Positions 16,582-51,812 of a DNA stretch of 53,519 bases are shown piece by piece (position 1 is the first letter of the stretch; each line of letters begins with the position of its first letter). The notes below the pieces were generated by a model. The model saw only the letters and a list, made by a program, of their open reading frames with translations. It ran no database searches and was not told the DNA's origin. This stretch comes from Acidobacteriota bacterium (lineage in GTDB: Bacteria; Acidobacteriota; Vicinamibacteria; Vicinamibacterales; JACQTH01): contig JACOUA010000042.1 in the NCBI GenBank assembly GCA_016178075.1, forward strand, positions 1 through 53,519, written 5' to 3'. The translations under genes and the position numbers were made by a program.

Positions 16582-16604
16582 AGTCAGAAGTCAGACTTCT
16601 GACT
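16582..16604. repeat. Short heptamer hairpin AGTCAGAAGT-cag-ACTTCTGACT
   Basis: Perfect 10-bp stem; same AGTCAGA unit as 24009-24099. Confidence 0.7.
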
Positions 16605-16608
16605 GAAC

Positions 16609-17049
16609 CTATTGCTCGAGAACTTCGCGGACCTTCTTGGCGAGCGCATCCGGGGAGAACGGCTTCCGAAGGAACGGCGTGTGCGGATCGAGCCCGCGCG
16701 CTTTGAGCGTCGATTGATCCCTGTAGCCTGACATCAGAATCACCCGGACATTCGGCCGGACCGCGAGGACGGCGTCCATGAGCGCTGGACCGCTCATCCC
16801 AGGCATGACCACGTCGCTCAGGAGGACGTCGAAGCGCTCGGTTGAATCGCTCACGACCGCCAGCGCCTGCCCGGGGTTGTCGGCTTCGATGATGTCGTAG
16901 CCGAACTGTTTGAGGAAGTTCGCGACCACGGCGCGGACGGCGCGCTCGTCCTCGACGACGAGGATCCGCGCGGGCACCGCGGGCGTCGACGGCCTGGGCG
17001 AAGGCCACGCGCGGTGAGCCGGCGGCCGCGCCGCTTCGTAGCCGTCCAT
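16609..17049 (-). CDS. Single-domain response regulator receiver (start uncertain)
   Basis: ILVVEDE, LLSDVVMPGMSG, MSGY and LRKPF motifs. Confidence 0.8.
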   Translation of the reverse strand: MDGYEAARPPAHRAWPSPRPSTPAVPARILVVEDERAVRAVVANFLKQFGYDIIEADNPGQALAVVSDSTERFDVLLSDVVMPGMSGPALMDAVLAVRPNVRVILMSGYRDQSTLKARGLDPHTPFLRKPFSPDALAKKVREVLEQ

Positions 17050-17313
17050 CGGAATCAGCCACGGTTGGGGGGACTCGATTCTTCCCTGACCTGCACTCAG
17101 CATGTGATCTCCAGATGGCATAGCTCGACCGTTGCCCGACGTATCGGGTCACCTCGGACGTGACTTTACGCGCCGCCCCGTCACAGGATGTGTGCTCGCG
17201 ACGCGACGGCAGCGCCGCTGGGAAACCCTGTGCAGCTCCTGGATCTTCCGCCGTCTGTCGGGCGTCTTACTAGGCCGGGGCTCTGCCCCGGGCCCCGGCT
17301 CGCGGGGTTCACT

Positions 17314-18327
17314 ATGCCGGTCGTGCCGATCGCGTCGCCTTCGTCCGTTCCCCCTCATCCCTCTGATTCCAGCACGCGAGGCGATGACCGCAGTCTGCTG
17401 GATGCGTACTCGCGCGCGGTCATCGGGGCCGTCGAGCGCGTCAGCCCGGCGGTGGTCAGGGTCAACGTCGTGCGTCAGCGGCGCGGCGGGCGCGCGACGG
17501 CCGGCGGCAGCGGCTCGGGCGTCGTCTTCACGCCGGACGGCTTCATCCTGACCAACAGCCATGTGGTCTCGGGAGCCTCGTCGCTCAACGTCCTGCTCAC
17601 CGACGGACATGAGCTGGCGGCGCGGCTGATCGGGGACGATCCGGACACCGACCTGGCGGTGCTGCGCGCTGAAGCGTCCGGATTGTCGGCAGCCGCGCTC
17701 GGCGATTCGGAGGCTCTTCGACCCGGACAGGTCGTGATCGCCATCGGGTGCCCGTTCGGCTTCGAGTGCACGGTGACCTCCGGTATCGTGAGCGCGCTCG
17801 GGCGCTCGCTGCGATCCAAATCCGGGCGGTTGATGGACGGGATTATCCAGACGGATGCGGCGCTCAATCCCGGCAACTCGGGCGGACCGCTGGTCGACTC
17901 GGCCGGTGCGGTCGTCGGCATCAACACCGCGATCATCCAACCCGCGCAGGGCCTTTGCTTCGCGATCCCGATCAACACCGCGAAGTTCGTCGCGTCGGGG
18001 CTCATCAAGGACGGCCGCATCCGGCGGGGCTTCCTCGGAATCGGCGGCCAGGGCGTCCCACTCCCCCGCGCGGTGGTCCGGTTTCATCGTCTGGCGAGCG
18101 AGCGCGGCATCCTGGTTATCGCGGTAGAATCTGGCAGCCCGGCGGCGCGGGCCGGCCTCCGGGAGGGCGATGTGATCGTGCGATTCGGCGAGCAGCCGGT
18201 TCCAACCGTCGACGCGTTGCAGCGCCAGCTGGCGGAAGGGGTGATCGGCTCCTCGACACGGGTGCTCGTCGTCCGCGCCACGCAGCTCCACACGCTCACG
18301 GTGATCCCGGTCCAATCGAAGAGTTGA
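17314..18327 (+). CDS. HtrA/DegS-like trypsin serine protease with PDZ domain
   Basis: LTNSHV, DLAVL, IQTDAALNPGNSGGPL; GSPAARAGL PDZ. Confidence 0.9.
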   Translation: MPVVPIASPSSVPPHPSDSSTRGDDRSLLDAYSRAVIGAVERVSPAVVRVNVVRQRRGGRATAGGSGSGVVFTPDGFILTNSHVVSGASSLNVLLTDGHELAARLIGDDPDTDLAVLRAEASGLSAAALGDSEALRPGQVVIAIGCPFGFECTVTSGIVSALGRSLRSKSGRLMDGIIQTDAALNPGNSGGPLVDSAGAVVGINTAIIQPAQGLCFAIPINTAKFVASGLIKDGRIRRGFLGIGGQGVPLPRAVVRFHRLASERGILVIAVESGSPAARAGLREGDVIVRFGEQPVPTVDALQRQLAEGVIGSSTRVLVVRATQLHTLTVIPVQSKS

Positions 18328-18394
18328 ACAGGTCCTCAGTCATGATGTCCGGCATCGTGCAGCACTTGTTCCGGACCACGCGCGGACGTAACAC

Positions 18395-19363
18395 ATGAAG
18401 GCGATTCGTGCTCATCAGTTCGGAGACCCGGGCGTTCTGAGCATCGAAGACGTCCCGGATCCGCAGCCGGGTCCCGAGCAAGTCCTGGTGCGGGTGCACG
18501 CGGCCGGCGTGAACCCGGTCGACACCTACATTCGAGCCGGGACGTATGCGAGGAAGCCGCAGCTCCCCTACACGCCCGGGTCTGATGGCGCCGGGGTTGT
18601 CAGCGCTGTCGGGGCCGCGGCGACGAGCGTCAGGCGCGGCGATCGTGTGTACCTGACGGGAACGAGCGGGGGCACCGGTACCTACGCGGAGCTCGCGATC
18701 GCCGACGCGCGACAGGTGCACCTGCTGCCCGATCATCTCTCGTTCGGGCAAGGCGCCGCCGTCGGCGTGCCGTACGGGACCGCCTATCGCGCGCTCTTCC
18801 AGCGCGCCCACGCCGTCCCCGGCGAGACCGTGCTGGTGCACGGCGCGAGCGGCGGGGTCGGTACGGCCGCGATCCAGATCGGACGAGCGTGCGGTCTCCG
18901 GATGATTGGGACGGCGGGCACGGATCGCGGGCTTGCGCTGGTACGCGAGCAGGGCGCCGACCACGTCCTGAACCATCGGGCACCGGATTACCTCGAAGAG
19001 CTCAGGCAGGTGACGGGCGGCCGCGGCGTCGACGTCATCGTCGAGATGCTCGCGAACGTGAACCTGGCGAAGGACCTGACCGTCCTGGCCTTCAACGGCC
19101 GCGTCATTGTCGTCGGCAATCGCGGCACAATCGAGATCAACCCGCGTGACGCGATGTCCCGCGACGCCGCGATTCTGGGGATGACCCTGTTCAACGTGCG
19201 CGACCCCGACCGCGCCAGCATCGATGCGGCCCTGAATGCCGGGTTCCGCGCCGGCACGCTGAAGCCGGTCGTGGGCCGCGAGTTTCCCCTCGCGGACGCG
19301 CCGCGCGCGCACGAAGCCGTCCTCGAGCCCGGAGCCTACGGCAAGATCGTGTTGCTTCCTTAG
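18395..19363 (+). CDS. qor: NADPH:quinone reductase (zeta-crystallin-like MDR)
   Basis: AAGVNPVD, PYTPGSDGAG, VLVHGASGGVG, GKIVL. Confidence 0.88.
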   Translation: MKAIRAHQFGDPGVLSIEDVPDPQPGPEQVLVRVHAAGVNPVDTYIRAGTYARKPQLPYTPGSDGAGVVSAVGAAATSVRRGDRVYLTGTSGGTGTYAELAIADARQVHLLPDHLSFGQGAAVGVPYGTAYRALFQRAHAVPGETVLVHGASGGVGTAAIQIGRACGLRMIGTAGTDRGLALVREQGADHVLNHRAPDYLEELRQVTGGRGVDVIVEMLANVNLAKDLTVLAFNGRVIVVGNRGTIEINPRDAMSRDAAILGMTLFNVRDPDRASIDAALNAGFRAGTLKPVVGREFPLADAPRAHEAVLEPGAYGKIVLLP

Positions 19364-19424
19364 TAGTCCACTTAGGACCCGATCGAGGTCATGGTCGTCG
19401 AGATGAAGCCGAAATCCGCAATTC

Positions 19425-20474: not shown

Positions 20475-20496
20475 CGCGCACCTCCATCATTTGATC

Positions 20497-20626
20497 CGCG
20501 TGGGGCCCCACCCCCACGCGCCGCCGTCGCTGACGCTCCGGATCTTGGTTGCTGCATTCTTCCGCTTCGTACGACGTCAGCGGGCGCCACGCCGCCCGCC
20601 AGCCGTCGCTTCCGCTCCGGATCTTG
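20497..20626. repeat. Intergenic palindrome plus 25-bp direct repeat
   Basis: CGCGTGGGG/CCCCACGCG hairpin; GCCGTCGCTnnCGCTCCGGATCTTG at 20523 and 20602. Confidence 0.6.
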
Positions 20627-20677
20627 CTGGCATCGCCGTTGCCGCCCGCGGAGCGAGAAGTCGGAACAATTCTACCC

Positions 20678-21674: not shown

Positions 21675-21692
21675 CGGTGTGCTGGAGGTTGG

Positions 21693-23946: not shown

Positions 23947-24008
23947 TCGTTGCGGAAGACCTTCTGATCATATCATTACGAGAAGTGATGACCGACGACA
24001 CCGACAGC

Positions 24009-24099
24009 AGTCAGAAGTCGGAAGTCTGAAGTCAGAAGTCAAGAGTCAAAAGCCTAAAGTCTCGATTTCTGACTTCTCACTTCTGACTTCCAACTTCTG
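24009..24099. repeat. Heptamer tandem inverted-repeat element (8 AGTCnnn-type units / 5 ACTTCnn-type units)
   Basis: Units read directly: agtcaga agtcgga agtctga agtcaga agtcaag agtcaaa ... acttctc acttctg acttcca acttctg. Confidence 0.85.
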
Positions 24100-25242: not shown

Positions 25243-26767
25243 TCACCTTCGTGTCATCGTGATCCCGACCGCCGCGCCGTCGGCCGATCGCCGGTCACAG
25301 CCCCCCTCCAGCATGTCGTTCTGTTTGTTGTAGACGATGACCTCGGCGGTGCCCTGGCTGCCTCCCGCTTGCAGCGTGTGCCCTTTGGCGGTCAGGAGTG
25401 CGACCGTGTCGGGCGAGAACCCGTTGCGCTCGTGCTGGATGCGATCCGGGAGCCACTGGTGATGGAACCGCGGTGCGTCGACGGCTTCCTGCGCGTTCAT
25501 GCCGAAATCGATCACGTTGACGATCGTTTCGAGCACGGTGTTGATGATCGTGCGGCCGCCGGGGCTCCCCGTCACCATGAAAAGCTCGCCATCCTTGGCG
25601 ATGATGGTCGGCGTCATGCTGGACAGCATGCGTTTGTGCGGCGCCGCCAGATTCGGCTCGGTGCCGATGAGCCCCTCGGCGGTCGTCAGGCCCGGACCGG
25701 CGTTGAAATCCCCCATCTCGTTGTTCAGCAGGAACCCGCCGCCGGCGACCCAGCCGACCGATCGGCATGTTGGCATTGAAATCCGGATCGCCGAGATATT
25801 GGGCGCGATCGGCATAGGCGCGCCGCATCGCTTCGGTCATCAGGTGGATGTTCGCCGCCGATCCGGCTCCGTTCGCCGCGAGGTCGTAGCCTTCCAGAAT
25901 GTTCAGCATCTCGATCAGCCCGACGCCGCCGGAGCTGATCGGCGGCATCGAGATGATGTCGTAGCCGCGATAGGTTCCACGGACGGGCGTCCGGATCTTC
26001 GCTTTGTACGCTTTCAGGTCCTCGCGCGTGATCAATCCACCGTTGGCCGCCATGTCTTTCTCGATGAGCAGGGCGGTCTCGCCTTCGTAGAAGCCCGCCG
26101 GCCCGAGCTCCGAGATTCGCTGGAGCGTGCGCCCCAGATCCGGCTGCTTGAGCATCTCGCCCGCCTCGTACGGCACGCCGGCCTTCGAGAACTGCGCGAC
26201 GGCCGCTGGCGATTTCCTCATCTGCGGCAGGATCCCCCTCAGTGAGCCGGCCAGCCCTTCGGTCACCTCGAATCCATCTCGCGCGAGCGCGATCGCGGGA
26301 TCGACCAGCCGTTTCCACGGCAGCTTGCCGTGCTCCTTCCATGCGAGGTGCAGGCCCGCCACGGTGCCGGGCACGCCAACCGACAGGTAGCTGTTGTGGT
26401 GCACGTTGGAATCGTACTTCCCGTCCTTGAGGAACATGGTCGGGGTCGACGTCGCCGGGGCGATCTCCCGGAAATCAATGGCGACCGGGTCGCCGGTGCG
26501 AGGACGGTAGACCATGAAGCCGCCGCCGCCGATATTGCCGGCGGTCGGATGCGTGACGGCCAGCGCGAACGCGGTCGCCACCGCCGCGTCGACGGCGTTC
26601 CCGCCGTCGCGGAGCACCGCCGCTCCCACGCGCGAAGCCACTTCGTTGACCGAGACGACCATGCCGCCCCGCGCGCGAACAGGGGTCGATGCCGCCTGGA
26701 GGATGGTGAGCGAGAAGACGGCGACGACAAACAGCGCGCCAGCAGCCCTGCTCGATCGGAGCGTCAT
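25243..26767 (-). pseudogene. ggt: Gamma-glutamyltransferase with internal deletion and frameshift at ~25751
   Basis: Large subunit (GGNAVDAAVA, GNIGGGGF, DFRE, PPISSGG, AYADR) ends at MPIGRL; small subunit resumes in another frame at VAGGGFLLNNEM...LSSMTP; TTH nucleophile segment absent. Confidence 0.85.
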
Positions 26768-26863
26768 GAGGAGTCTCCCTTCACTGAGGTCGCGCTGATT
26801 GTAGAGGTCATGCCGGGTCCCCGCCAATACCTGCCCGGTGCCGGCCCGCTGATATGATTGCCC

Positions 26864-27226
26864 ATGCCGATCATCACCGTCGAAGGCTTCAGCCCTGCAG
26901 AGGTGCCCGCCGACAGGCGCCTGGTCCTGGCGATTGAAGAGGATGTCGTAGTGGACATCCTGCACGCCTGCGGCGGCAACGCGCGGTGCACGACCTGCCG
27001 GGTGGAGTTCCTCGCCGGCGAGCCCGAGACGATGACCGTGGCGGAGAAGGAGCGGCTGGCGCAGCGCGGTCTCTCGGGTGTTCGACTCTCGTGCCAGATC
27101 CTCTGCGACCACGACATGACGGTCAGGGCGATCAGCCGGTTGGGCGGCAGCGGACGACCCGATTCTGGCCCGAAGCCGGCGACGACCATCACGCCGCCGG
27201 CGGTGTGGACGAGGAAGGACGCTTGA
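26864..27226 (+). CDS. 2Fe-2S ferredoxin
   Basis: HACGGNARCTTC...RLSCQ. Confidence 0.92.
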   Translation: MPIITVEGFSPAEVPADRRLVLAIEEDVVVDILHACGGNARCTTCRVEFLAGEPETMTVAEKERLAQRGLSGVRLSCQILCDHDMTVRAISRLGGSGRPDSGPKPATTITPPAVWTRKDA

Positions 27227-27337
27227 TAGTGGCCAGTGATCAGTGCCCGGTGGCCAGTGTGCATCGGCTGCGCGTGGCACTTCTTTTTCTTGCGTCGCTC
27301 CTGGCCACTGACCACTGGCCACTGGCCACTAGCCACT
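27227..27337. repeat. Heptamer inverted-repeat element (CAGTGGC / GGCCACT); right arm lies inside the next CDS
   Basis: tagtggc cagtgat cagtgcc cggtggc ... ggccact gaccact ggccact ggccact agccact. Confidence 0.85.
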
Positions 27338-28398
27338 CGCATGCTCAACCAACAGCCACTTACTCCGAGAAGGACTTTCTTTCACAAACCCGTCGTCTCA
27401 CATTCGAAGGCCGGCGCGCGGGAGAGGGATATTTTTCGCCCGACGGGACGAAGATCGCCTTTCAAAGCGAGCGCGAGCCCGGAAATCCCTTCTATCAGAT
27501 CTACGTGCTCGATCTGAGGTCCGGCGACACTCGCCGCATCTCGCCCGGAATCGGAAAGACCACGTGTGCGTTCTTTCACCCGAAAACCGGCGATATCCTG
27601 TTCGCTTCCACCCATCACGATCCCCGCTCGCTCGAGTTGCAGAAAGCGGAACTGGAAGCGCGGAAGTCCGGGAAAGAACGCCGCTACGGGTGGGATTACG
27701 ATCCGGAGATGGATCTGTACGTCGCCAACCAGACCACGAGCGCCCTGAAGCGTCTCACGAACGTGCGCGGCTACGACGCAGAGGGCAGCTACTCCCCCGA
27801 CGGTCAGTGGATCGTCTTCACCTCGACGCGCGACGCTTACAATCGCACCCTCACAGCCTCGGAACAGAAGCAGTTGGAGGTCGATCCGTCGTTCTTCGCC
27901 GAGATTTACATCATGCGCGCCGACGGCAGCGGCGCGCGGCGTCTGACGAACGTCAACGGCTACGACGGCGGGCCGTTCTTCTTTCCCGACGGCTCGCGCA
28001 TCGTCTGGCGTCGCTTCGACGAGGCGGGCCTCATCGCCGACGTCTGGACGATGAAGCCAGACGGCAGCGACCAGCGTCAGGTGACCGACTTCAAGTCGAT
28101 GAGCTGGGCGCCGTACCTTCATCCATCGGGCGAGTACTTGTTCTTTGCTTCCAACAAGTACGGCTTCGAGAACTTCGAGGTTTTCATCGTCGACACGAAG
28201 GGCACGAAGGAGCCGGTACGCGTCACCTTCACACTCGGGTTCGATGGCCTGCCGGTGCCGTCGCCCGACGGTAAGCAGCTCGCATGGACGTCGACACGCG
28301 ACGGCGGCCTGGGTCAGATGTACATCGGCCGCTGGAATCACGAGAAGGCGCTCGAAGCGGTGAAGGCAGCGCCGGTGCGGGCGCACGGCCAGAAATAG
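27259..28398 (+). CDS. TolB-like PD40-repeat beta-propeller protein
   Basis: RAGEGYFSPDG, GYDAEGSYSPDG, YDGGPFF, FDGLPVPSPDG; GTG start inferred. Confidence 0.85.
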   Translation: MHRLRVALLFLASLLATDHWPLATSHSHAQPTATYSEKDFLSQTRRLTFEGRRAGEGYFSPDGTKIAFQSEREPGNPFYQIYVLDLRSGDTRRISPGIGKTTCAFFHPKTGDILFASTHHDPRSLELQKAELEARKSGKERRYGWDYDPEMDLYVANQTTSALKRLTNVRGYDAEGSYSPDGQWIVFTSTRDAYNRTLTASEQKQLEVDPSFFAEIYIMRADGSGARRLTNVNGYDGGPFFFPDGSRIVWRRFDEAGLIADVWTMKPDGSDQRQVTDFKSMSWAPYLHPSGEYLFFASNKYGFENFEVFIVDTKGTKEPVRVTFTLGFDGLPVPSPDGKQLAWTSTRDGGLGQMYIGRWNHEKALEAVKAAPVRAHGQK

Positions 28399-28488
28399 TC
28401 GATAGTCTTTAGTCGATAGTCTTTAGTCGTTCGTCGTTCGTCGACTGATGACTTTCGACTAGAGACTATCGACTACCGACTATCGACT
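28396..28488. repeat. Heptamer inverted-repeat element (TAGTCGA / GACTAnn)
   Basis: tagtcga tagtctt tagtcga tagtctt tagtcgt ... gactaga gactatc gactacc gactatc; first unit supplies the TAG stop. Confidence 0.88.
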
Positions 28489-28504
28489 GGCACTGAGAAA
28501 CAAC

Positions 28505-30872: not shown

Positions 30873-30910
30873 CTGATAGCTGGGAGCTGAAAGCTGGTAG
30901 CGTAATAGCT
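30873..30910. repeat. One-armed heptamer array (CTGnnAG x4)
   Basis: ctgatag ctgggag ctgaaag ctggtag between convergent genes. Confidence 0.6.
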
Positions 30911-31866: not shown

Positions 31867-32088
31867 ATGCCGGTGTTCGAGTACGTGTGCAAGTCCTGCT
31901 CGCGGCAGTTCGAGCAGCTCGTTCGACATGGGGATCACCCCGCCTGCCCGGACTGCGGCGGCGAGGAATTGGAAAAGCTGTTTTCCGTCTTTGCGGCTGC
32001 CGTGGGGGGATCCCGATCCGGACCGGCGCCCGGCCCGTGCGGAACGTGCGGCGACCCCCGCGGTCCGGGCGCCTGCTCGATGAATTAG
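31867..32088 (+). CDS. FmdB-family zinc-ribbon protein
   Basis: MPVFEYVCKSC...FE...CPDCG. Confidence 0.88.
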   Translation: MPVFEYVCKSCSRQFEQLVRHGDHPACPDCGGEELEKLFSVFAAAVGGSRSGPAPGPCGTCGDPRGPGACSMN

Positions 32089-32090
32089 CG

Positions 32091-32173
32091 CAGTTTTCAG
32101 TTCTCAGTAGTCAGTTTTCAGTTCGGATCTCGCCCGCAAATAACTGAAAACTGATGACTGACAACTGAGAACT
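32091..32173. repeat. Heptamer inverted-repeat element (CAGTTYT / AACTGAn)
   Basis: cagtttt cagttct cagtagt cagtttt ... aactgaa aactgat gactgac aactgag. Confidence 0.88.
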
Positions 32174-32175
32174 AC

Positions 32176-32203
32176 GCTACAGCGAAGTGAAAAACGCTGT
32201 AGC
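32176..32203. terminator. Hairpin between convergent FmdB-family gene and queG
   Basis: GCTACAGCG / CGCTGTAGC perfect 9-bp stem. Confidence 0.45.
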
Positions 32204-37507: not shown

Positions 37508-37522
37508 ATAAGCCCTTGACAG

Positions 37523-37596
37523 CAGTTCTCAGTTTTCAGCGGTCAGCTTTCAGTAAGAGCTTTTATTGAGAACTGATGACTGATAACTGAAAACTG
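37523..37596. repeat. Heptamer inverted-repeat element (CAGTTYT / AACTGAn), same subtype as 32091
   Basis: cagttct cagtttt cagcggt cagcttt ... aactgat gactgat aactgaa. Confidence 0.85.
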
Positions 37597-37606
37597 GCTC
37601 TACACA

Positions 37607-40206: not shown

Positions 40207-40350
40207 GCTGTAGGGGCCGGCCTTCTTTAGTGTGCGCCCCACCCCCTCGCGCACACGCGCTTCGCGCGACGCCGTTGCCACCCCAACGCGGGTGCCGCGT
40301 TGGGGACCCCGGTTTCGGGCTTGCCGCGCCGCTTCGCGGCGCAGCCCGAC
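40207..40350. repeat. Cluster of consecutive REP-like palindromes
   Basis: GTAGGGGCCGGCC; GTGTGCG..CGCACAC; CCCCAACGCGG/CCGCGTTGGGG; TCGGGCT..AGCCCGA. Confidence 0.6.
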
Positions 40351-41485: not shown

Positions 41486-41490
41486 GAAGA

Positions 41491-41555
41491 ATTGCCGATT
41501 GGGGATTGCGGAGTGCTGAATTGATTGGCGATTCCTGATCGAGGATTGGTGGATT
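41491..41555. repeat. One-armed degenerate heptamer array (ATTGnnG)
   Basis: attgccg attgggg attgcgg ... attggcg attcctg atcgagg attggtg. Confidence 0.6.
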
Positions 41556-43810
41556 CAGGGTTTTTTGAACAAGGTGTCGTCGAGCGCCACATTGAGCTTG
41601 AGCTCGCTCACCGCTCGCTCGAGGATGGTCTGATCGCCGCGGCGCATGATCGCCTTGTAGGCGACCTGCACGCCGTCGACCATGCGGTAATCCGACAACA
41701 GCTCCTCGGTGCGCTGCGGGCCGACGGGTGTGTCGGCCACATACGTCACCTTGACGATCAGGCCGGTGGCCTTGTCCAGAAACAGCGTGACCGGGCCGCG
41801 GTCGCTTTCACCCCTCGAGAGCTCGAGCGCCTCGAGATCCCGCTCGTCCGCTCCGGTCGCCGGCCTGGCGCGCGCCTGCAGCTTGCCGGCCGCCGCTTCG
41901 ATGAGCAGCAGAATCAGGTCCCGCTGCGCGCTCGCGTGAAACTCGTCCCGCATCGGCGGCGGCGCATCGTGCACGCCCGTCGGATCCTTGATCCAGGCCT
42001 CGCCCCCGGCGAACGTCTCCACGATTTCCCCCTGCGGCAGCTTGGCCTCGATGCGAAAACGATCAGGGTAGGCAATCAGCGTTCGGGTCTCGGCCTCGAC
42101 AGGGCCCTGCGGCGTCATCAGCCTGGTGGTGGCCGTGGCGGTCAGCGTGCGGACGCCCTTGAGCTTCTCGAGACCGCCCTTGGCTTTGGCGGCCCGCTCG
42201 ACGAGGGCTTTGCCTCGAGACAGGTCCTCAGCGGTCGGCGGCGCCGCCGACGGACGCTTCTGGGCTCGCGACCGCGCCTGCGCAGCCCACGTCAGCTCGT
42301 AGCGGACGTCGGAATCCGTCCCACCCCCGTTGGCTTTGCCCCGCTTGAAATCCGTCGTGGTCAGGTCGAGATCCCGGAGCGACACGGTTTCGAACTTCCC
42401 GAATCCGACGCCTGCCAGCTTGGACGCGAACGCAGAAGCGTTTCCGACGAGAACGACCGAGAGCCGGTCCGGCTTCAGGAACGCCCTCGCGACCCGTGAG
42501 ATGTCGTCCACCCTCACGGCGTTCACCCGATCGCGGAACGTCTCGAGGTCTTTGAGCGGCAGCTCGTAGAAGATCGCGTTCAGGACCTGCGTGGCGATGG
42601 CATCGGGCGTTTCGATCGTGAGGGGGAAGCTGCCGCTGAGATACGCCTTGGCATCGGCCAGCTCGCTTTCGAATGCCGGCTCACGCTGCATCTTGCCGAA
42701 CTCCTCCACCATCAGGCGGAGGACTTCGGGCGTCGCCTCGGATCGCGTATCGGTCTCGGCCTTGAAGTTCCCGCTCAGCTTGAATGTTTCGAAGTCGGCC
42801 GACGCCCCATAGGTCAGGCCCCGCTCGGACCGCAACACGCGATGCAGCCGGTTGGCGCCCTCACCGCCCAGGATCTTCATCGTGAGATTGAGCGCCATGT
42901 AGTCGGGATGCTTGCGCGGCAGCCCGAGGTGACCGATCCGCACTTCCGTCTGCACCGCGTCCGGCTTGTCGACGATCACGACGCGGCGCGTCGGAGGAGG
43001 AGGTTCGCTGATCGAGACGGGTGTGATCTCCTTCCGCGGCCAGTCACCGAAGATCTTCTCCGCCGCCGTAAAGGCGTCCTTCGGAGCGATATCGCCGACG
43101 ATGGCGAGAATCGCGTTGTTCGGCGCGAAATACGCGCGATGGAAGCCCGCCAGATCGTCGCGGGTGATCTTCTCCACGGACTCCGGCGTGCCGCTGTTCG
43201 GTAACCCGTACGGATGGAAACCGTAGACGAGACGATCAAAGACCACATTGGCGACGTAGTCGGGATCCTCGTAGCTGACCTTCAGGGCCGATCGGACCTG
43301 CTGGCGCTGGCGTTCGAGCTCCTCCTGCGCGAAGGCCGGCGCGCGCGCGATCTCGGACAGCAGGCCCAGCCCCAGGTCGAAGCTGTCCTTCATCACGAGG
43401 ACATGGACAAAGGTCAGGTCGCTGCCGGCACCCGTGCTGAGCTCGCCGCCGATGAAATCGATGGTGTCGGCGATCTGCTGGGCGCTGCGCTTGACCGTGC
43501 CCTGATCCAACAACGAGGCGAGCATGCTCGCGAGGCCGCTTCGGCCTGGCGGCTCCTGCGCGGACCCGACCCGCACGAGCATCCGCATGCTGACCGCCGG
43601 CTGCTCGTGATGCTCGACCGCGATCACCTGCAGCCCGTTGGCCAGCGTCCGAATCTCGTAGGGCGGAAACTTCACGTCACGCGCCGCGAGGGGACGCGGC
43701 GGTGATTCGGACGGCCAGTTGCGCGTTTGCGCAAACGCCGGCGAACCCCAAACCGCCAGCGCGATGGGGAGCACGCCGCGCATCACACAAGCCCGCGCGA
43801 TTCGGCTCAT
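41555..43810 (-). CDS. M16B peptidase non-catalytic subunit with extra C-terminal ~230-aa domain
   Basis: LANGL, no HxxEH, RLHRVLRSERGLTYG; C-terminal AKGGLEKL... LolA-like region. Confidence 0.85.
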   Translation of the reverse strand: MSRIARACVMRGVLPIALAVWGSPAFAQTRNWPSESPPRPLAARDVKFPPYEIRTLANGLQVIAVEHHEQPAVSMRMLVRVGSAQEPPGRSGLASMLASLLDQGTVKRSAQQIADTIDFIGGELSTGAGSDLTFVHVLVMKDSFDLGLGLLSEIARAPAFAQEELERQRQQVRSALKVSYEDPDYVANVVFDRLVYGFHPYGLPNSGTPESVEKITRDDLAGFHRAYFAPNNAILAIVGDIAPKDAFTAAEKIFGDWPRKEITPVSISEPPPPTRRVVIVDKPDAVQTEVRIGHLGLPRKHPDYMALNLTMKILGGEGANRLHRVLRSERGLTYGASADFETFKLSGNFKAETDTRSEATPEVLRLMVEEFGKMQREPAFESELADAKAYLSGSFPLTIETPDAIATQVLNAIFYELPLKDLETFRDRVNAVRVDDISRVARAFLKPDRLSVVLVGNASAFASKLAGVGFGKFETVSLRDLDLTTTDFKRGKANGGGTDSDVRYELTWAAQARSRAQKRPSAAPPTAEDLSRGKALVERAAKAKGGLEKLKGVRTLTATATTRLMTPQGPVEAETRTLIAYPDRFRIEAKLPQGEIVETFAGGEAWIKDPTGVHDAPPPMRDEFHASAQRDLILLLIEAAAGKLQARARPATGADERDLEALELSRGESDRGPVTLFLDKATGLIVKVTYVADTPVGPQRTEELLSDYRMVDGVQVAYKAIMRRGDQTILERAVSELKLNVALDDTLFKKP

Positions 43811-47884: not shown

Positions 47885-48511
47885 ATGCCATTCGCGCTTG
47901 CCGCGCTCGCTTTCATCGCCACGCTCGCGGGACAGACCTTGGCCGTCCAGACGGCCGATTCTCCGATTCAGTGCGAGTTCCGGGTGTTCGACGGGGACCA
48001 GGAAGTCAGCGCCGAGACGACGCTGAGAATCTTTCCCAGTGGCAGGAGGGAAGGCGGCTTGACGGCGGGACCGGCTGACCGGCTGCTGGCCGGCCTTGTC
48101 GCCGGCCTGTACGACGTGCAAGCGGTCCGCGAGCGTCAGGGAAAGGTCGTCAGCATCAAATGGGCGGAGCGGCTCGTGGTCATGCACTATCCGGATGAAG
48201 CGGGCTTTCACCTCGAGGTGATCAACTTCAAGCCCGGATACGGCGCGCTGCAGCTCCGTCCCGCGATCGGCACCCTTCTGGATCTCGACGGGTTCGAGGC
48301 GCGCGCCGCGAGGCCGGGCGCTCGTACCGAGGAAGTCGGCCGCGCCGTCCGAGGCGAGAAGTACCTGTTGCTCGTGATACCGTCCGGAAGCTACGACGTC
48401 CAGCTCCGCGCGCGCGACGCCGCTCAGGGCGAGGGTCAGTGGCTGGCGGCGATCGAGGTGCCGGTCGATCGCACGCGGCTCAAGTCGGTCACGTTGCCCG
48501 TCAAACGCTGA
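47885..48511 (+). CDS. Secreted hypothetical protein
   Basis: Signal peptide; TGCTATAAT extended -10 at 47865-47873. Confidence 0.7.
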   Translation: MPFALAALAFIATLAGQTLAVQTADSPIQCEFRVFDGDQEVSAETTLRIFPSGRREGGLTAGPADRLLAGLVAGLYDVQAVRERQGKVVSIKWAERLVVMHYPDEAGFHLEVINFKPGYGALQLRPAIGTLLDLDGFEARAARPGARTEEVGRAVRGEKYLLLVIPSGSYDVQLRARDAAQGEGQWLAAIEVPVDRTRLKSVTLPVKR

Positions 48512-48537
48512 ACGCGCAGAGCTGCAAGCACCCGTTT

Positions 48538-48598
48538 AACCACGGAGCCCACAGAGACCACGGAGAGAACCTAATGTTCTCTGTGTGCTCTGTGAGCT
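48538..48598. repeat. Nonamer-period inverted-repeat element (CCACRGAGn / TCTGTGnGC)
   Basis: ccacggagc ccacagaga ccacggaga gaac-ctaat-gttc tctgtgtgc tctgtgagc. Confidence 0.75.
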
Positions 48599-48741
48599 GC
48601 TCAGAAAATCCCCGCCAAGAAGTTGACACGATCCGGCGGGATGGATTTTCATGCTACGGGGTGAGCCCCGCTCGTGACGACTCCGTGGTGATCGTGGGCA
48701 GTTTCTGAGGCTCCCGAGCTCAGGCTGAGCCGCCCTACTTC

Positions 48742-49638
48742 TCATCGCGGTATCTTGCTCGGCACGCGCTTCAGCTCCAGCGGCAAGGGCGGTCGTCCCG
48801 CCGCCTCCCAAGCGCCGGCCACGAACGAGGCGATGTCGCCAATCGACTCCGACAGGCGTCGCTCGAGCATCGGCTTCACCGCCGAGAACAGCGCCTCGTA
48901 GTAGCCGTCGTCATAGATCTCGCGGCCGGCGGCCGCTTGCTTGTCCGCGTCGAGCAGCGGCGCCACGAGCTTGTAGCTCTCGAGGATGATCGCGAACATC
49001 GCGTCGCGCGGCGCCTTCACGGGGGTGAGCGACGGCGGCGCGATCTTCAGCTTGTCGCGGTACCGCAGGAAGAGATCCGTTTCCCACCGCGCGTGGATGC
49101 CGTTCTGGTTCGTGAGCTGACCGTCGTGATTGCTCGCCGCGTGGAGCGGCACATGGCTATCCGCCACATAGTGCGCCAGCACCGCGGTGAAGAGCTTGAC
49201 GCTATCCAAGGCCATAGGCCGGTCGCGCGGCACATCCTGGAACGCTCGGACCAGGCGGCCGTACATTTCCGCCGCGCGCCAGGGCAGCACGCCGGTCCGC
49301 TCGACGACATCCGGCCCGTACTTCTGAATCGCCGCGCCGTACTCCCGCGGCAGCTCCTCGAACGGAAACGTGCCGTAGGCGTCGATGTTGATGAAGTGGC
49401 GCGGGGGCTCTTCCTCCCATCCCACGCTGCGCCACAGGTCAGGATCGATCGCATGATTCACGATGTAGGCGCGGTGCTTCTGGAAAAACGGCTGGATCGC
49501 CCCCGGCAGCACGTCGATGGCGCGATCGACGATGAAGTAGTGCGCCTCGAATCCCCAGCCGTGGAGGGGCCGACCCCCAGACAGCCAGAGCGTGGTGAGC
49601 GCGAGGGCCGGGATTGCGCGACGATGGATGGGGAGCAT
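48742..49638 (-). CDS. Zinc-dependent phospholipase C / S1-P1 nuclease family protein
   Basis: Mature N-terminus WGFEAH, PD, HFINID, HYVADSHVPLH, IHARWE. Confidence 0.85.
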   Translation of the reverse strand: MLPIHRRAIPALALTTLWLSGGRPLHGWGFEAHYFIVDRAIDVLPGAIQPFFQKHRAYIVNHAIDPDLWRSVGWEEEPPRHFINIDAYGTFPFEELPREYGAAIQKYGPDVVERTGVLPWRAAEMYGRLVRAFQDVPRDRPMALDSVKLFTAVLAHYVADSHVPLHAASNHDGQLTNQNGIHARWETDLFLRYRDKLKIAPPSLTPVKAPRDAMFAIILESYKLVAPLLDADKQAAAGREIYDDGYYEALFSAVKPMLERRLSESIGDIASFVAGAWEAAGRPPLPLELKRVPSKIPR

Positions 49639-49654
49639 GGTCCGTATACTAGTT

Positions 49655-49740
49655 GGGATTCGGGCTTCGGGATTCGGGAATCGGGATTCGTCAGACATCC
49701 AACAGCACAGGCGAAACCCGAACCCCGAGTCCCGAATCCC
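49655..49740. repeat. Heptamer inverted-repeat element (GGGATTC / CGAATCC)
   Basis: gggattc gggcttc gggattc gggaatc gggattc ... cgaaacc cgaaccc cgagtcc cgaatcc. Confidence 0.88.
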
Positions 49741-49746
49741 CAGCCG

Positions 49747-50712
49747 ATGGACAACCTCACGCACACCCTCTTCGCCCTGACGCTGGCCAACGCCGGCGTC
49801 GGCCGGCGGGATCCCGGCGTCACGGCGACGCTCCTCCTGTCGTCGAACGCGCCCGACATCGACATCGTCACGGCGTTCACGAGCGGCGCGGTGCAGTACC
49901 TCGCGGAGCACCGCGGACCCTCGCACGGGCCGATAGGCGTGCTGGCGCTCGCGACGCTGACGGCCGCGTTCGTCAGAATCTGCCAGGGCCGGGAGCGAGC
50001 GGCGCACACCTCGCTGACTCGTCTGGTCGCCGTCGCGCTCGTCGGCACACTCTGTCACGTCCTGATGGACTTACCGACGGCCTATCGCACGCGACTGCTG
50101 GATCCGTTCAACAAGGCCTGGTACGGCTTCGATTGGCTGCCGATCATCGATGTGTACCTGCTCGTCGTGCTTGGCGCCGGATTGCTGGCCGCGCAGGTCC
50201 GGCCGCGACGCCGGGCGCCGGTGGCGGCGGTCGTCCTTGTTCTCACGATCGCCAACTACGGACTGCGCGCGACGCTCAACGCCGCGGCGCTGCGAGAAGA
50301 ACGCGCGGCGTCGCCCCGCGCCGCCAAACTCGTCGACGCCGCCGCGATCCCGACATTCTTCTCGCCGTTTAGATGGCGGATCGTCCGGCGATACCCCACC
50401 GGCTACGAGCTGAGCGAGGTCGATCTGCTGAAACGCGCGGCTGGTTTGCGAGAGACGCAGGCAGATGGTCCCGTCTGGGTACCTGCCGAGGAGAGCCATT
50501 GGACCGTCCGTGCCAGCCAGAGCGCCACCGCGCGCGTGTTTCTCGACTTTTCCCGGTTCCCCGCCGCGCGGACGCTCTCTCACCCGGACGGCAGCGTGAC
50601 GGTTCGGTGGTCCGACCTCCGCTTCTTCGGCAACAATTTCTTCGTCGCGACGGTCCGCCTCAGTCCCGACGGCCTCATCCTGTCGGAGGCTTTGGGGGCC
50701 ATGGAGAATTGA
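49747..50712 (+). CDS. Membrane-bound metal-dependent hydrolase (YdjM-like)
   Basis: MDNLTH, NAPDID, HRGPSH, HVLMD, IID motifs. Confidence 0.85.
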   Translation: MDNLTHTLFALTLANAGVGRRDPGVTATLLLSSNAPDIDIVTAFTSGAVQYLAEHRGPSHGPIGVLALATLTAAFVRICQGRERAAHTSLTRLVAVALVGTLCHVLMDLPTAYRTRLLDPFNKAWYGFDWLPIIDVYLLVVLGAGLLAAQVRPRRRAPVAAVVLVLTIANYGLRATLNAAALREERAASPRAAKLVDAAAIPTFFSPFRWRIVRRYPTGYELSEVDLLKRAAGLRETQADGPVWVPAEESHWTVRASQSATARVFLDFSRFPAARTLSHPDGSVTVRWSDLRFFGNNFFVATVRLSPDGLILSEALGAMEN

Positions 50713-50843
50713 GAATTTGGTGATTGAGAATCTGGTAATTGATTGTTCAATCGGTCGATTGCTTAATTGACAATCTATTGCCCCTTACCCGATTCGACAA
50801 CCGAACGATCAATTGCCAGATTGCCAATCACCAGATTCTCAAT
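50704..50843. repeat. AT-rich 7/8-nt-period inverted-repeat element (GAGAATT/GGTRATT)
   Basis: ~35-bp arms (50709-50743 and 50808-50842) complementary with ~4 mismatches; supplies the TGA stop of the upstream gene. Confidence 0.8.
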
Positions 50844-50857
50844 GCAAGGAGCGGGTA

Positions 50858-51730
50858 TTGCCTCGCCTGGGCGCGCACGTGTCGATTGCTGGTGGCCTGC
50901 CATTGGCCGTCGAGCGCGCAGCCCTGCACCGGTGTGAGGCGTTCCAGATCTTTTCCAAGTCAGCGAATCAGTGGCGGGCGCGGCCCCTCCCGGCCGACGA
51001 GATCGTCGCCTTCCGGCGGCGAGTCGACGAAACTGGGATTCAGCCAGTCGTCGCCCACGCCAGCTATCTGATCAATCTCGCCGCCGGCGCCTCACCGCTG
51101 CGCGATCGGTCGATCGCATCGTTCGGCGAGGAGCTCGATCGCGCGGAAGCCCTGGGCCTGATGGGGGTCGTCATCCACCCGGGCGCATTTGTCACCGGCT
51201 CGGAAGACGATGGCCTGCGCCTCATCGCCAGCGCGATTGCAGCCACGTTGAAGACGCGCCGGCGCGGCCGCACGCTCGTCCTGCTCGAGGGCACCGCGGG
51301 TCAGGGTACGTCGCTCGGGTACCGATTCGAACATCTCGCCGACATCCTCACCAGAGTCGACGGCTCCCCACGCGTCGGCGTCTGTCTCGACACCTGCCAC
51401 CTGCTGGCTGCCGGTTTTGACATCTGCTCCGAGGGGGGATACCGCCGCACCTTCCGGGCCTTTGATCGCATCGTCGGCATCGATCGCCTGAAGGTGTTTC
51501 ACCTGAACGACTCGAAGCGCCCGTGTCAGAGCCGCATCGATCGGCACGAGCACATCGGCAAGGGCTGCATCGGACTGGAGCCGTTCAGCCGCCTGTTGAA
51601 CGATCGCCGGTTCAAGTCGCTGCCGATGCTGATCGAAACGCCGAAGACCGAAGGGCGCTGGGGCTCACGCGTGCAGGCCGATCCGCTCGACGAGATGAAC
51701 CTGGGCATTCTGAGGAGCCTCATGGGGTGA
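50858..51730 (+). CDS. nfo: Endonuclease IV (AP endonuclease 2)
   Basis: LGAHVS, HASYLINL, HPG, LEGTAGQG, CLDTCH, HLNDSK, DRHEHIG, IETP; AAGGAG RBS before TTG. Confidence 0.96.
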   Translation: MPRLGAHVSIAGGLPLAVERAALHRCEAFQIFSKSANQWRARPLPADEIVAFRRRVDETGIQPVVAHASYLINLAAGASPLRDRSIASFGEELDRAEALGLMGVVIHPGAFVTGSEDDGLRLIASAIAATLKTRRRGRTLVLLEGTAGQGTSLGYRFEHLADILTRVDGSPRVGVCLDTCHLLAAGFDICSEGGYRRTFRAFDRIVGIDRLKVFHLNDSKRPCQSRIDRHEHIGKGCIGLEPFSRLLNDRRFKSLPMLIETPKTEGRWGSRVQADPLDEMNLGILRSLMG

Positions 51731-51737
51731 TCATCGT

Positions 51738-51812
51738 CGGGATCGGGGGATCGGGGGTCGGGGATCGGTGAAACGTGTCTTTTCCGACCCCCGGCCCCCG
51801 ATCCCTGATCCC
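51738..51812. repeat. Heptamer inverted-repeat element (GGGATCG / CCGATCC)
   Basis: gggatcgg gggatcgg gggtcgg ggatcgg ... ccgaccc ccggccc ccgatcc ctgatcc. Confidence 0.85.

Follow-up and report, generated by a model that had tools for sequence, protein, structure and literature searches.

What are the hairpins of tandem 7-nt units that recur between positions 16582 and 51812 of a 53,519-nt stretch of DNA (the window) from a soil or groundwater acidobacterium, and what reads them? The initial annotation attributed these elements to a dedicated process that generates or reads hairpins with a 7-nt period, and noted that similar arrays flank four-helix-bundle genes.

Results

Heptamer elements in the window

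All eleven listed elements are present at the positions given, and each was folded and compared with 200 dinucleotide shuffles. Eight of them beat all 200 shuffles, with z scores from −5.0 to −10.5 (folded stretches starting at 24003, 27224, 28393, 32086, 37520, 49650, 50703 and 51736). Nine of the eleven elements are significant hairpins of convergent heptamer arrays, and those at 30873 and 41491 are direct arrays only.

The first element (16582..16606) is a small hairpin of two AGTCAGA units with a 10-bp stem and a 3-nt loop, located 2 nt from the stop of a minus-strand response-regulator gene (z −2.9; 3 of 200 shuffles fold equally well). The hairpin at 24005..24099 separates gcpE from a divergently transcribed VIT-family gene (z −7.2, 0/200 shuffles), and has a 5′ arm of 6.9 AGTCAGA-type units (24005-24052) and a 3′ arm of 4.7 units (24067-24099); among the 50 relatives' loci listed, L033 is the only one in which period-7 arrays precede gcpE. 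The CAGTGGC/CCACTGG hairpin at 27227..27337 (41-nt loop, z −5.4) begins immediately 3′ of the TGA that ends a 2Fe-2S ferredoxin gene, and the first TAG (28396) of the hairpin at 28393..28489 (unit TAGTCGN, z −10.5) is the stop codon of a PD40-repeat gene. The latter hairpin has 18 BLAST matches, which are merely 77–82% identical and have differing loops.

The two direct arrays are AGCTGNN at 30873..30901, located in a convergent gap and forming no hairpin (z −1.05; 31 of 200 shuffles equal), and GATTGNN at 41491..41560, located between lpxB and a co-oriented gene for an M16 peptidase (z −2.5; 6 of 200 shuffles fold equally), for which no convincing inverted arm was found. A mixed CAGTTNT/CAGCNNT hairpin at 37520..37600 (z −5.0, 0/200 shuffles) starts ∼5–15 nt upstream of the start codon of a minus-strand aconitase gene. 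The GGGATTC/GAATCCC hairpin at 49655..49740 (z −5.9) takes up a 109-nt gap between two divergent genes, ydjM, which starts 8 nt away, and a phospholipase-C-like gene, which starts ∼17 nt away. The TGA of ydjM (50710) is supplied by a 144-nt palindromic element (50703..50846, z −10.0), whose outer arms have a period of ∼15 nt and whose inner heptamers are of the GATTG type; it belongs to a diverged dispersed family of ∼18 copies with 75–83% identity. Finally, a GGGATCG/CGATCCC hairpin in a convergent gap (51738..51811, z −6.1) lies 8 nt past one stop codon and touches the other.

Orthologous gaps in the congener G001 show that the heptamer elements turn over fast between relatives. The gap corresponding to 28393..28489 is empty, with ∼5 nt from stop to ATG; that corresponding to 27227..27337 contains the right-hand array alone, with CTGGCCC replacing CTGGCCA; and that corresponding to 41491..41560 contains a nested hairpin of other units. 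Thus, both empty and different-unit alleles, as sought by the initial annotation, exist in a relative.

Period-7 arrays in the genome

The predicted genome-wide enrichment of period 7 was borne out. TRF returned 19, 242, 1409, 388, 912 and 283 rows for periods 5 to 10, respectively, and our own tandem detector (at least 4 copies, at most 2 mismatches) found 217 arrays of period 7 versus 15 of period 5, 15 of period 6 and 8 of period 8. With the same detector, a third-order Markov version of the genome gave no arrays. From the 1185 merged arrays, 661 formed 340 inverted pairs, and direct neighbours sharing a unit numbered 13. The 87%-complete assembly contains 322 paired heptamer hairpins, ∼90% of them between genes. 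These results support the view that the hairpins form a single architectural class occurring far above chance frequency.

According to a rough home-made gene caller, called coding sequence makes up 82.7% of the genome and holds 9.9% of array bases; the median distance is 5 nt from a called stop to an array and 17 nt from an array to a start codon. The gaps with arrays (++ 79, −− 91, +− 54, −+ 49) match the proportions of all gaps (63/19/18%), and the hairpins favour neither a particular type of gap nor a direction of transcription. Intergenic gaps of every type are therefore filled in proportion to their availability, up to the stop and start codons. None of the 22 terminator-like sites overlaps an element and none of the 322 paired hairpins looks like an intrinsic terminator, in line with the reported scarcity of U-tails.

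Structure of the arms

The heptamer unit consists of a fixed core of 4–5 bases and 2–3 free bases. The core phases of opposing arms pair at 6535 of 6798 positions (96%). Pairing of the variable tails hardly exceeds chance: 1485 of 2703 positions (55%), versus 3713 of 8258 (45%) after shifting the register by one or more complete units. A signal of RNA wobble was absent from the sense-strand mismatches (163 G-T, 148 A-C). Arm length peaks at four to five units (240 arms of four, 183 of five and 42 of six).

Polarity is uniform within unit families: CAGTT 156/156, GGGAT 42/42, CAGCT 33/33, GATTG 26/26, TAGTC 18/18 and CAGTG 12/12. It is also shared between them, since the G+T-rich arm is on the 5′ side in 287 hairpins versus 30 or, counted by distinct unit, in 35 of the 41 units with unequal G+T content (42 units in total). 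The commonest unit in the genome is NAACTGA. The combination of a fixed core, free tails, strict polarity and a mode of four to five units suggests that what is kept in the arms is an ordered array of a short recognition word, and not a base-paired stem or a terminator.

Four-helix-bundle genes between heptamer arms

The genome contains eight matches to PF05635, all on contigs other than that of the window, as the annotation had stated for the window itself. Three of these genes lie between inverted heptamer arrays, another three are bordered by an array at one end and two by no array; one of the eight, on contig C307, is flanked by TAGTCGN, the unit of hairpin 28393..28489. Among the 40 best PF05635 hits in relatives belonging to the same order, 24 lie between inverted heptamer arrays, and 21 of these 24 cassettes have the G+T-rich arm at the 5′ side. 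The enclosed gene encodes a four-helix bundle of ∼120 aa. The association with four-helix-bundle genes suggested by the annotation is thus real.

An arm unit is shared with some PF05635 gene of this genome by 187 of the 322 hairpins. The other 135 lack a matching gene in the 87%-complete assembly, and include all GGGAT, GATTG and CAGTG hairpins; hence the window elements at 27227, 49655 and 51738 are without a matching gene. For three motifs, the array-richest genome carries a four-helix-bundle gene with matching arms; motif-matched genomes are G000, G007, G038 and G026 for AACTG, G020, G027 and G025 for GTAG, and G023 for GGGAT. No PF05635 hit was found in G021 or G036, yet these genomes have 40 and 6 GGGAT-type and 10 and 9 GTAG-type matches, respectively. 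In a generic sample of at most 40 kb per relative the genome-level association with PF05635 is weak (Spearman 0.27, p 0.10), with any array being present in 17 of the 26 genomes that gave a PF05635 hit and in 3 of the 14 that did not.

Protein identity and arm-unit distance are correlated (r = −0.19, 820 pairs; none of 5000 permutations reached this value), also between taxonomic families (r = −0.17), suggesting that related PF05635 proteins tend toward related arm units. Counterexamples are L153/L156 and L176/L181, which are 67% and 70% identical, respectively, with a unit distance of 3 in both cases. Simple co-inheritance of gene and arms would also explain the link between protein and unit.

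Family A, a mobile heptamer hairpin

The element at 32086..32203 (plus strand) is one of the 51 copies of a family, named A, with a median identity of 97.5%. It consists of a heptamer hairpin (32091-32173; five CAGTTNT units, a 17-nt loop and five NAACTGA units), followed at its 3′ side by a second hairpin of 9 bp (32176-32203). The TA at 32086-32087 is part of the TAG stop codon of a zinc-ribbon gene and is present again at 32200-32201. In the flanks of family A, Y|TA was observed in 44 of 44 copies and TA|R in 43 of 44, the left TAR serving as stop codon for a called gene in 11 of 44. The insertions duplicate the TA of YTAR targets, which are often stop codons, and this explains how elements "supply" stops; the claim that they abut or supply them agrees with the median distance given above and with the codons at 28396, 50710 and 32086.

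An empty allele is present on a 3498-nt contig of run X2, which omits exactly 32086-32199, with TAGC fitting both sides, and which differs from the window in 5 of its 3498 letters, i.e. it derives from a near-identical co-occurring strain. These data show that family A is a MITE that is active or was so very recently. Another array is present within 45 nt of 13 of 44 copies, versus 279 of 5000 random intergenic points, and the loops of other hairpins also receive family A insertions. Indels of 7 nt among the copies show that arrays change length in 7-nt steps; higher-order periods of 14 and 21 nt are present in arrays as well. Among 41 genomes, near-identical copies were found in G000 only.

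The view that the window elements are not copies of one REP or MITE must accordingly be qualified: they do differ from one another and, genome-wide, the loop is unique in 194 of the 224 hairpins outside family A, but 32086..32203 and 50703..50846 belong to the copy families described above. Since most loops are unique, copy-and-paste is demonstrated for a minority of the hairpins only, and the proposal of non-autonomous mobile sites holds for one family.

Discussion

The 7-base repeat type itself has already been published for Xanthomonas, Geobacter, Beggiatoa and cyanobacteria. The present elements are of one kind with the heptamer pairs of Xanthomonas and Geobacter, and have a relationship to STRR and TAACTGA repeats. 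STRR heptamers of cyanobacteria were reportedly described by Mazel et al. in 1990. Xanthomonas genomes have 70–75 convergent pairs of plus- and minus-strand GGGAATC heptamers, possibly forming stem-loops, and Nostoc has GGGGA(C/T)T (Rehm et al. 2015, PMC4692102). The Xanthomonas repeats resemble ours in period, intergenic location near gene ends and preference for about four units, and a GGGAT family is present here too; however, they have one unit instead of the at least 42 present here, most of which are unable to form quadruplexes, and they are 83% positionally conserved with no link to mobile elements seen, whereas one family here is mobile. Passages of that paper retrieved with other search words mention no PF05635 link. 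TAACTGA direct repeats, described for Beggiatoaceae, cyanobacteria and Bacteroidetes (MacGregor 2015, PMC4679880), share their word with NAACTGA and, like STRRs, are intergenic, often located just before start codons, strain-specific and subject to 7-nt-step indels. Mobility was not demonstrated for them, and most form single direct arrays (169 direct sets versus one inverted set in the Beggiatoa genome), whereas inverted pairs prevail here. Geobacter metallireducens has tens of copies of intergenic elements with four or five tandem heptanucleotides, GGACCGG or MTYCTGA (Aklujkar et al. 2009, PMC2700814), the latter class being drawn as a strand-switching pair, i.e. a hairpin as here; that study interprets them as binding sites of a global regulator, which differs from our reading.

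A first alternative, which we regard as unlikely, is that the elements are ordinary TA-duplicating MITEs of the IS630/Tc1-mariner type and their decayed remains, that the heptamers are subterminal transposase-binding repeats, and that the four-helix-bundle genes are passengers or captures in the loops. Family A fits this description. Bacterial TA-duplicating MITEs of this type include Correia/NEMIS, RUP and Nezha, with which family A shares a size of ∼114 nt, many near-identical copies, the YTAR target with TA duplication, the exact empty site and a location between genes, near their ends. Its target signature is that of ordinary IS630-type MITEs and not of a novel machine, contrary to the uncharacterised mobile system that had been envisaged. 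IS630 prefers CTAG as target, and one IS630-like gene of this genome is flanked by TA within CTAG. Insertions of family A into other loops, and the 50703 family as an intermediate stage of decay, would also fit. Against it, the inverted ends of both IS630-like copies in the genome are unrelated to family A, and a transposase gene or parent IS with family-A-like ends was not found in this genome. Unlike these MITEs, family A has short imperfect inverted ends and a body in which a heptamer-array hairpin is followed by another hairpin, and most hairpins of the class lack a copy family. Plain decay does not predict unique loops together with highly conserved cores, nor does random landing in loops predict that related four-helix-bundle proteins have related units across taxonomic families.

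The second alternative, to which we likewise assign a low probability, is that the arrays are simple-sequence repeats made locally, by replication slippage from a seed word and template switching for the inverted copy, and are then kept by selection for a role at the RNA level, whether as a site for RNase III, a protector of mRNA ends or a site of translational control close to start codons, in line with MacGregor's proposal for TAACTGA (PMC4679880). The mostly unique loops, the 7-nt indels and higher-order periods, the concerted change of unit at one orthologous site and the proximity of start codons are in line with this, as is the finding that Xanthomonas repeats of this type are mostly transcribed (PMC4692102). 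However, tails that are barely complementary, the lack of a G-U excess over A-C in the sense strand, the indifference to gap type and direction and the absence of terminator tails argue against this alternative, and slippage alone does not explain the preference for period 7, the strict polarity or identical copies at 51 loci. No evidence was obtained here for a dedicated process making 7-nt periods.

G-quadruplex formation, as proposed for the GGGNATC repeats of Xanthomonas and Nostoc (PMC4692102), would suit the GGGAT-type units (elements 49655 and 51738; 42 of 322 hairpins) and a mode of about four units, four being the number of G-tracts required, and could still add a property to that subset, but CAGTTNT, TAGTCGN and GATTGNN, which have no G-tract and make up most hairpins, share the architecture, polarity and size mode, so that it is very improbable and effectively excluded as a general explanation.

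We favor, at about even odds, a reading in which the gene-less hairpins are non-autonomous elements, the four-helix-bundle cassettes are the gene-bearing members, and the cognate protein reads the word. PF05635 genes are enclosed by arms of the same architecture, the same polarity and partly the same units, and the gene-less hairpins are on that basis read as the non-autonomous majority. Family A and the four-helix-bundle cassette C87 have the unit type in common, and differ in loop and second hairpin; family A is most likely moved in trans by an IS630/Tc1-mariner-type transposase. In REPIN/RAYT systems a single-copy gene is bracketed by inverted palindromic repeats that are also scattered without the gene. 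By analogy, hairpins and cassettes may have a REPIN/RAYT-like relation, the PF05635 gene lying between inverted copies of a repeat also dispersed gene-less. In place of the Y1 transposase of RAYT systems, the enclosed gene encodes a four-helix bundle with no known catalytic activity, and arrays are absent from the surroundings of the only Y1 transposase gene in this genome. In intervening sequences a PF05635 ORF is located inside the loop of a long stem, a layout that the cassettes share. Such ORF-bearing 23S rRNA intervening sequences include the Coxiella IVS (PMC4990558), from which our elements differ in that none is in rRNA. As putative reader of the core word, the cognate four-helix-bundle protein is the strongest candidate, and rRNA intervening sequences with a PF05635 ORF may represent a special case of this element class.

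Heptamer hairpins are abundant and form inverted pairs

The assembly that contains the window (as its contig C51) comprises 4.96 Mb in 457 contigs, is 87% complete and has a G+C content of 65.5%. The nearest public relatives of its GcpE protein are encoded by Acidobacteriota MAGs (Vicinamibacterales, Thermoanaerobaculia and others) and share about 80% protein identity with it. The sequences of the eleven heptamer elements in the window read as the initial annotation had described them. When each element was compared with 200 dinucleotide shuffles, eight of the 11 folded better than all of the shuffles (z from -5.0 to -10.5), and the element at 16578 formed a small stem of 10 bp (z -2.9). The proposal that these elements are hairpins therefore stands for these but not for the elements at 41488 (z -2.5) and 30868 (z -1.05), which are direct arrays with no convincing second arm.

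Throughout the genome, TRF returned 19, 242, 1409, 388, 912 and 283 rows for periods 5, 6, 7, 8, 9 and 10, respectively. Our own detector, which requires four copies with at most two mismatches, found 217 arrays with period 7 and 15, 15 and 8 with periods 5, 6 and 8, whereas a copy of the genome simulated with a third-order Markov model yielded none. After merging, 1185 arrays of at least 2.8 copies were obtained genome-wide, 661 of which make up 340 inverted pairs with a median loop of 25.5 nt, versus 13 direct neighbours with the same unit. The excess of period 7 over the other periods between 5 and 10, the folding relative to shuffles and the prevalence of inverted over direct pairs thus uphold the view that hairpins with a 7-nt period are a genuine feature of this genome.

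Hairpins occupy all types of intergenic regions

Every element in the window sits between protein genes and none is located in a 23S rRNA helix, the position that defines an intervening sequence; Rfam gave no match across the window at gathering thresholds, rRNA families included. The adjoining genes are ordinary housekeeping genes, among them two aconitase-family genes, gcpE, and genes for a VIT-family protein, a ferredoxin, a PD40-repeat protein, M28 and M16 peptidases and a rhomboid protein, as well as queG, lpxB, ydjM and others. Genes were called with a rough caller of our own, based on GC3, with starts trimmed past arrays. By these rough calls, coding sequence holds 9.9% of the array bases versus 82.7% of the genome. 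The set of 322 hairpins with loops of up to 150 nt is distributed over tandem (170), convergent (54) and divergent (49) gaps, contig edges (37) and called coding sequence (12), and for the 273 hairpins in gaps the three shares match those of all gaps (63, 19 and 18%). With the same rough caller, the median distance is 5 nt past a stop and 17 nt ahead of a start codon. The region 16000-53519 contains 22 terminator-like sites, none of which overlaps the 11 elements, and the totals do not exceed those of shuffles. The absence of U-tails, and the use of divergent gaps as often as their availability predicts, argue against these elements being intrinsic (Rho-independent) terminators. In their period of 7, intergenic position, convergent arrangement and about four units per arm, they conform to the bacterial heptamer repeats and convergent pairs of the STRR, TAACTGA and GGGNATC type.

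Arms share a word and a polarity

The two arms of each hairpin were aligned without gaps, and the seven phases of the unit were split into conserved and variable ones. Conserved phases were complementary at 6535 of 6798 positions (96.1%) and variable phases at only 1485 of 2703 (54.9%), the latter in the register that had been picked to maximise matches; whole-unit register slides gave 3713 of 8258 (45.0%). Thus, the match between the arms stems mainly from a shared word in inverted orientation rather than from preservation of individual base pairs. Of the sense-strand mismatches in tandem gaps, 163 were G-T and 148 A-C, so that there is no sign of the wobble bias expected from selection on an RNA stem. 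That the hairpins are locally grown repeats kept for a role in RNA, despite this lack of a wobble signature, we consider improbable.

Within each unit family the orientation of the two arms is invariant: CAGTT 156/156, GGGAT 42/42, CAGCT 33/33, GATTG 26/26, TAGTC 18/18 and CAGTG 12/12, and all 290 hairpins assigned to a named unit family have one polarity. Taking both strands of the whole genome, the 5' arm is the G+T-rich one in 287 hairpins versus 30. The same holds for 35 of the 41 distinct units with unequal G+T (42 units in all), and for 21 of 24 cassettes of relatives in which a gene of the four-helix-bundle family PF05635 lies between heptamer arms (21 versus 3). A single polarity rule, a G+T-rich 5' arm, spans the unit families. 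Family A (see below) excluded, 240 arms contain four units, 183 five, 42 six and 20 seven, giving a mode of 4-5 units. Runs of at least three G are present only in GGGAT-type units (2 of the 11 window elements and 42 of the 322 hairpins), and since the other units lack G-runs, the four or more required for G-quadruplex repeats are not found outside this type, so that the class as a whole does not consist of such repeats.

Family A is a mobile element that duplicates TA

The window element at 32086-32203 belongs to a family, named A, with 51 near-full-length copies in the assembly (median identity 97.5%). Each consists of a CAGTTNT hairpin with a 17-nt loop, followed by a second hairpin of 9 bp. 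In element orientation, a pyrimidine precedes the left TA in 44 of 44 copies and a purine follows the right TA in 43 of 44, which indicates that the target is YTAR and that TA is duplicated. We rejected a target duplication of 4 nt: counted by eye, the third base agrees at both ends in about 27 of 45 copies versus about 48% expected, and the duplication is therefore read as TA only. A called gene that reads into the element has the left TAR as its stop codon in 11 of 44 copies, and the window copy provides the TAG stop of a zinc-ribbon gene (PF09723, E 2e-13). Insertion at YTAR sites that include stop codons offers a simple explanation for elements that adjoin stop codons or provide them, in agreement with what had been noticed in the window at the outset.

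Family A copies are often found near other arrays: for 13 of 44, another heptamer array is no more than 45 nt away (279 of 5000 random intergenic points), and five of 44 have arrays on both sides, i.e. are located in the loop of another hairpin (48 of 5000 random points). One copy, on contig C311, lies inside the loop of an element with period-9 arms resembling the one at 48518-48689 of the window.

The sequencing runs listed for this DNA are four DNA runs from one study and include no RNA run; contigs of these four were aligned to the window. A 3498-nt contig of run X2, which differs at 5 letters, joins position 32085 straight to 32200, and the sequence TAGC fits both sides. This contig is the exact empty site of the window copy. 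The elements at 24005, 28393, 37523 and 41491 are spanned without gaps by contigs of the same runs. Family A thus has the near-identical copies with defined ends, the TA duplication and the empty site that characterize a MITE. Near-identical copies were found only for the window element 32086-32203, and most other hairpins do not have them. For the collection as a whole, an explanation as plain IS630-type MITEs and relics would account for family A but not for this majority, and we regard it as unlikely.

Among 41 genomes of the order, near-identical family A copies were found in this genome alone; none was found in the 74%-complete congener G001. Genome G025, which is from another taxonomic family, contains a 79%-identical relative (C6:708655-708765) that includes the second hairpin, indicating that the composite element is older or more widespread than the burst described here.

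A YTAR target with TA duplication is the signature of IS630/Tc1-mariner elements. The genome contains three matches to DDE_3/IS630-like genes, and one IS630-like copy is flanked by TA in CTAG. These three genes have no flanking heptamer arrays, and two IS630-like copies have inverted ends that are unrelated to those of family A, in an assembly whose 87% completeness means that a matching IS may be missing. No transposase gene with matching ends was found in the assembly, and we infer an IS630-type mobiliser from the target signature. Classification as REP/REPIN elements with a RAYT transposase was dismissed because the single Y1 transposase gene (PF01797, contig C222) has no period-7 array nearby.

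Turnover and loop diversity of the other hairpins

Three orthologous gaps were compared with congener G001, the genes of which show 76-80% DNA identity. The gap corresponding to 28393 is empty in G001, with about 5 nt from stop to ATG. That of 27227 contains the right-hand array only, with all units CTGGCCC instead of CTGGCCA, and that of 41491 contains a different, nested hairpin with other units. Such a comparison had been proposed in the initial annotation, and both empty and different-unit sites were indeed found. Among 50 gcpE loci listed for relatives, only one (L033) has upstream period-7 arrays, and these are of other units.

Outside family A, loops were compared for the 224 hairpins in which they measure 14 nt or more, and 194 of these loops resembled no other. 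The majority thus fit the description "same architecture, different sequence". Small loop families have 13, 8 and 2 members, and the element at 50703 has about 18 relatives with 75-83% identity; relatives of the TAGTCGN hairpin at 28393 share the unit only and differ in their loops.

Eighteen pairs have loops longer than 150 nt. Three of these are known PF05635 cassettes, but as a source of further cargo the set was rejected, because most of the others are ordinary genes (def, an HU/IHF-like gene, an Rrf2-type regulator, ribosomal protein S14 and others) between two separate hairpins. At C63:5631-5828 and on contigs C319 and C361, the short essential genes for ribosomal protein S14, peptide deformylase and an HU/IHF-like protein are each flanked on both sides by separate complete hairpins. 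At C290:17585-18040, GGGATCA arrays and their complement surround a 406-nt loop with an ORF of 129-145 aa, whose product is alanine-rich and probably helical. Its only Pfam match with an E-value of 0.1 or lower (0.087) is at chance level, and the ORF may be non-PF05635 cargo.

PF05635 genes are flanked by inverted heptamer arrays

The genome has eight matches to PF05635, and none lies in the window, as the initial annotation had stated. Inverted heptamer arrays are present on both sides of three of the eight genes, on one side of three and on neither side of two. The three cassettes have arm units CAGTTNT (contig C87), TAGTCGT (C307; 12.9 and 3.6 units) and TGAGAAG (C416; 5.1 and 13.9 units). 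Family A was also considered as a deletion derivative of the C87 cassette and this was rejected, since only the type of arm unit is common to both.

For the relatives, the best 40 PF05635 matches in 40 genomes of the same order were taken, ranked by E-value without knowledge of their flanks. Inverted period-7 arrays were present on both sides of 24 of these genes, against a background of about 0.4 arrays per 10 kb in these genomes; five others had two-sided arrays that are unrelated by a one-mismatch rule, six had an array on one side and five had none. The suggested association of heptamers with four-helix-bundle genes is thus confirmed at the level of the locus, in this genome as well as in its relatives.

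Arm-unit distance tends to fall as protein identity rises in a set of 41 cassettes (r -0.19, 820 pairs; 0 of 5000 permutations as low), and the correlation is also seen between taxonomic families (r -0.17, 730 pairs), albeit with clear counterexamples. Units are at most two bases apart in 45% of the pairs with 50-70% protein identity versus 13-15% of those below 40%. Co-inheritance of gene and arms would yield this correlation without any recognition. For three words, the genomes richest in arrays hold a PF05635 gene with matching arms: AACTG (266 matches in this genome, and 42, 40 and 14 in relatives G007, G038 and G026), GTAG (218 in G020, 106 in G027 and 53 in G025) and GGGAT (110 in G023). 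In this genome, 187 of the 322 hairpins correspond in unit to the arms of a resident PF05635 gene, and 154 of these 187 are CAGTT-type.

Several results argue against a strict tie. The other 135 hairpins, including all those of GGGAT, GATTG and CAGTG type, have no matching PF05635 gene in this genome. Relatives G021 and G036 (98-100% complete) have no PF05635 match and yet carry arrays (40 GGGAT and 10 GTAG pattern matches in G021; 6 and 9 in G036). Array density and PF05635 are only weakly correlated (Spearman 0.27, p 0.10) in an unbiased sample of at most 40 kb per relative, which is too small to settle an association at genome level. Arrays of any kind were found in 17 of 26 genomes with a PF05635 match versus 3 of the 14 that have no match (one-sided Mann-Whitney p 0.017, with related genomes not being independent).

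Other features of the window

The gamma-glutamyltranspeptidase gene on the minus strand (25243-27322) is split, with the break near 25749-25815: profile positions 2-285 and 358-511 lie in different frames, and about 72 positions are absent. In run X2 and X3 contigs, 188 extra letters are present at 25749/25750, so that the absent piece appears to be retained in other strains. Four dispersed repeats are not heptameric: 17261-17302, 20481-20643, 40237-40346 and 52355-52647, with up to 32, 51, 14 and 50 BLAST matches in the assembly, respectively; several of these families match many G001 contigs at about 90% identity. The hairpin at 48518-48689, whose arms have period 9 (ACCACGGAG / CTCTGTG...), has as many as 48 matches within the assembly.

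Discussion

Heptamer repeats have been noted since 1990 in cyanobacteria, Xanthomonas, Geobacter and Beggiatoa, and the repeat class itself is already known; we know of no accepted origin or function. PF05635, the family of 23S rRNA intervening-sequence and Avd-like proteins, is very large, and for it, to our knowledge, no role has been described outside diversity-generating retroelements. The protein bAvd, a relative of PF05635 proteins, is a pentamer.

Xanthomonas genomes have 70-75 convergent pairs of GGGAATC heptamers, in which arrays of four units are preferred; positions are 83% conserved between two species, and no link to mobile elements was reported (Rehm et al. 2015, PMC4692102). TAACTGA repeats are the subject of MacGregor (2015, PMC4679880), and tandem arrays of four or five heptanucleotides are described for Geobacter (Aklujkar et al. 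2009, PMC2700814). Our literature search listed no publication in which heptamer repeats are connected with PF05635 or with intervening-sequence proteins; the repeat alignments and tables in the supplements of PMC2700814 and PMC4679880 may give further detail on hairpin pairs. New here are an active or recently active family together with its empty site, the targeting of YTAR and stop codons, the core-versus-tail and polarity rules, and a tested link with PF05635 at the level of the locus within one bacterial order.

The reading that we prefer, with a confidence that is evenly balanced, is that the word arrays are kept as recognition sites, that the hairpins are gene-less members of a class that also includes the four-helix-bundle cassettes, and that some families have moved as TA-MITEs. 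More tentatively, and with doubt prevailing, PF05635 proteins might be sequence-specific readers of a word of 4-5 bases every 7 bases. Gene and arms would then constitute a widespread class of hairpin elements, of which STRR, TAACTGA and GGGNATC repeats would be gene-less derivatives and rRNA intervening sequences the case that landed in rRNA. For such a reader, an arm of 4-5 units would match the oligomer of the protein.

In practical terms, heptamer elements break short-read assemblies. ORFs run through them, which misleads ORF callers, and predicted gene ends are displaced since the stop codon is part of several of these elements. This genome is an unusually rich case, with 322 hairpins, at least 42 arm units and one family that is polymorphic for presence or absence, and several of its PF05635 genes have arm units that match abundant gene-less hairpins. 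Two old questions, one on the reader of the 7-base word and one on the agent that moves or makes the arrays, can therefore be tested together.
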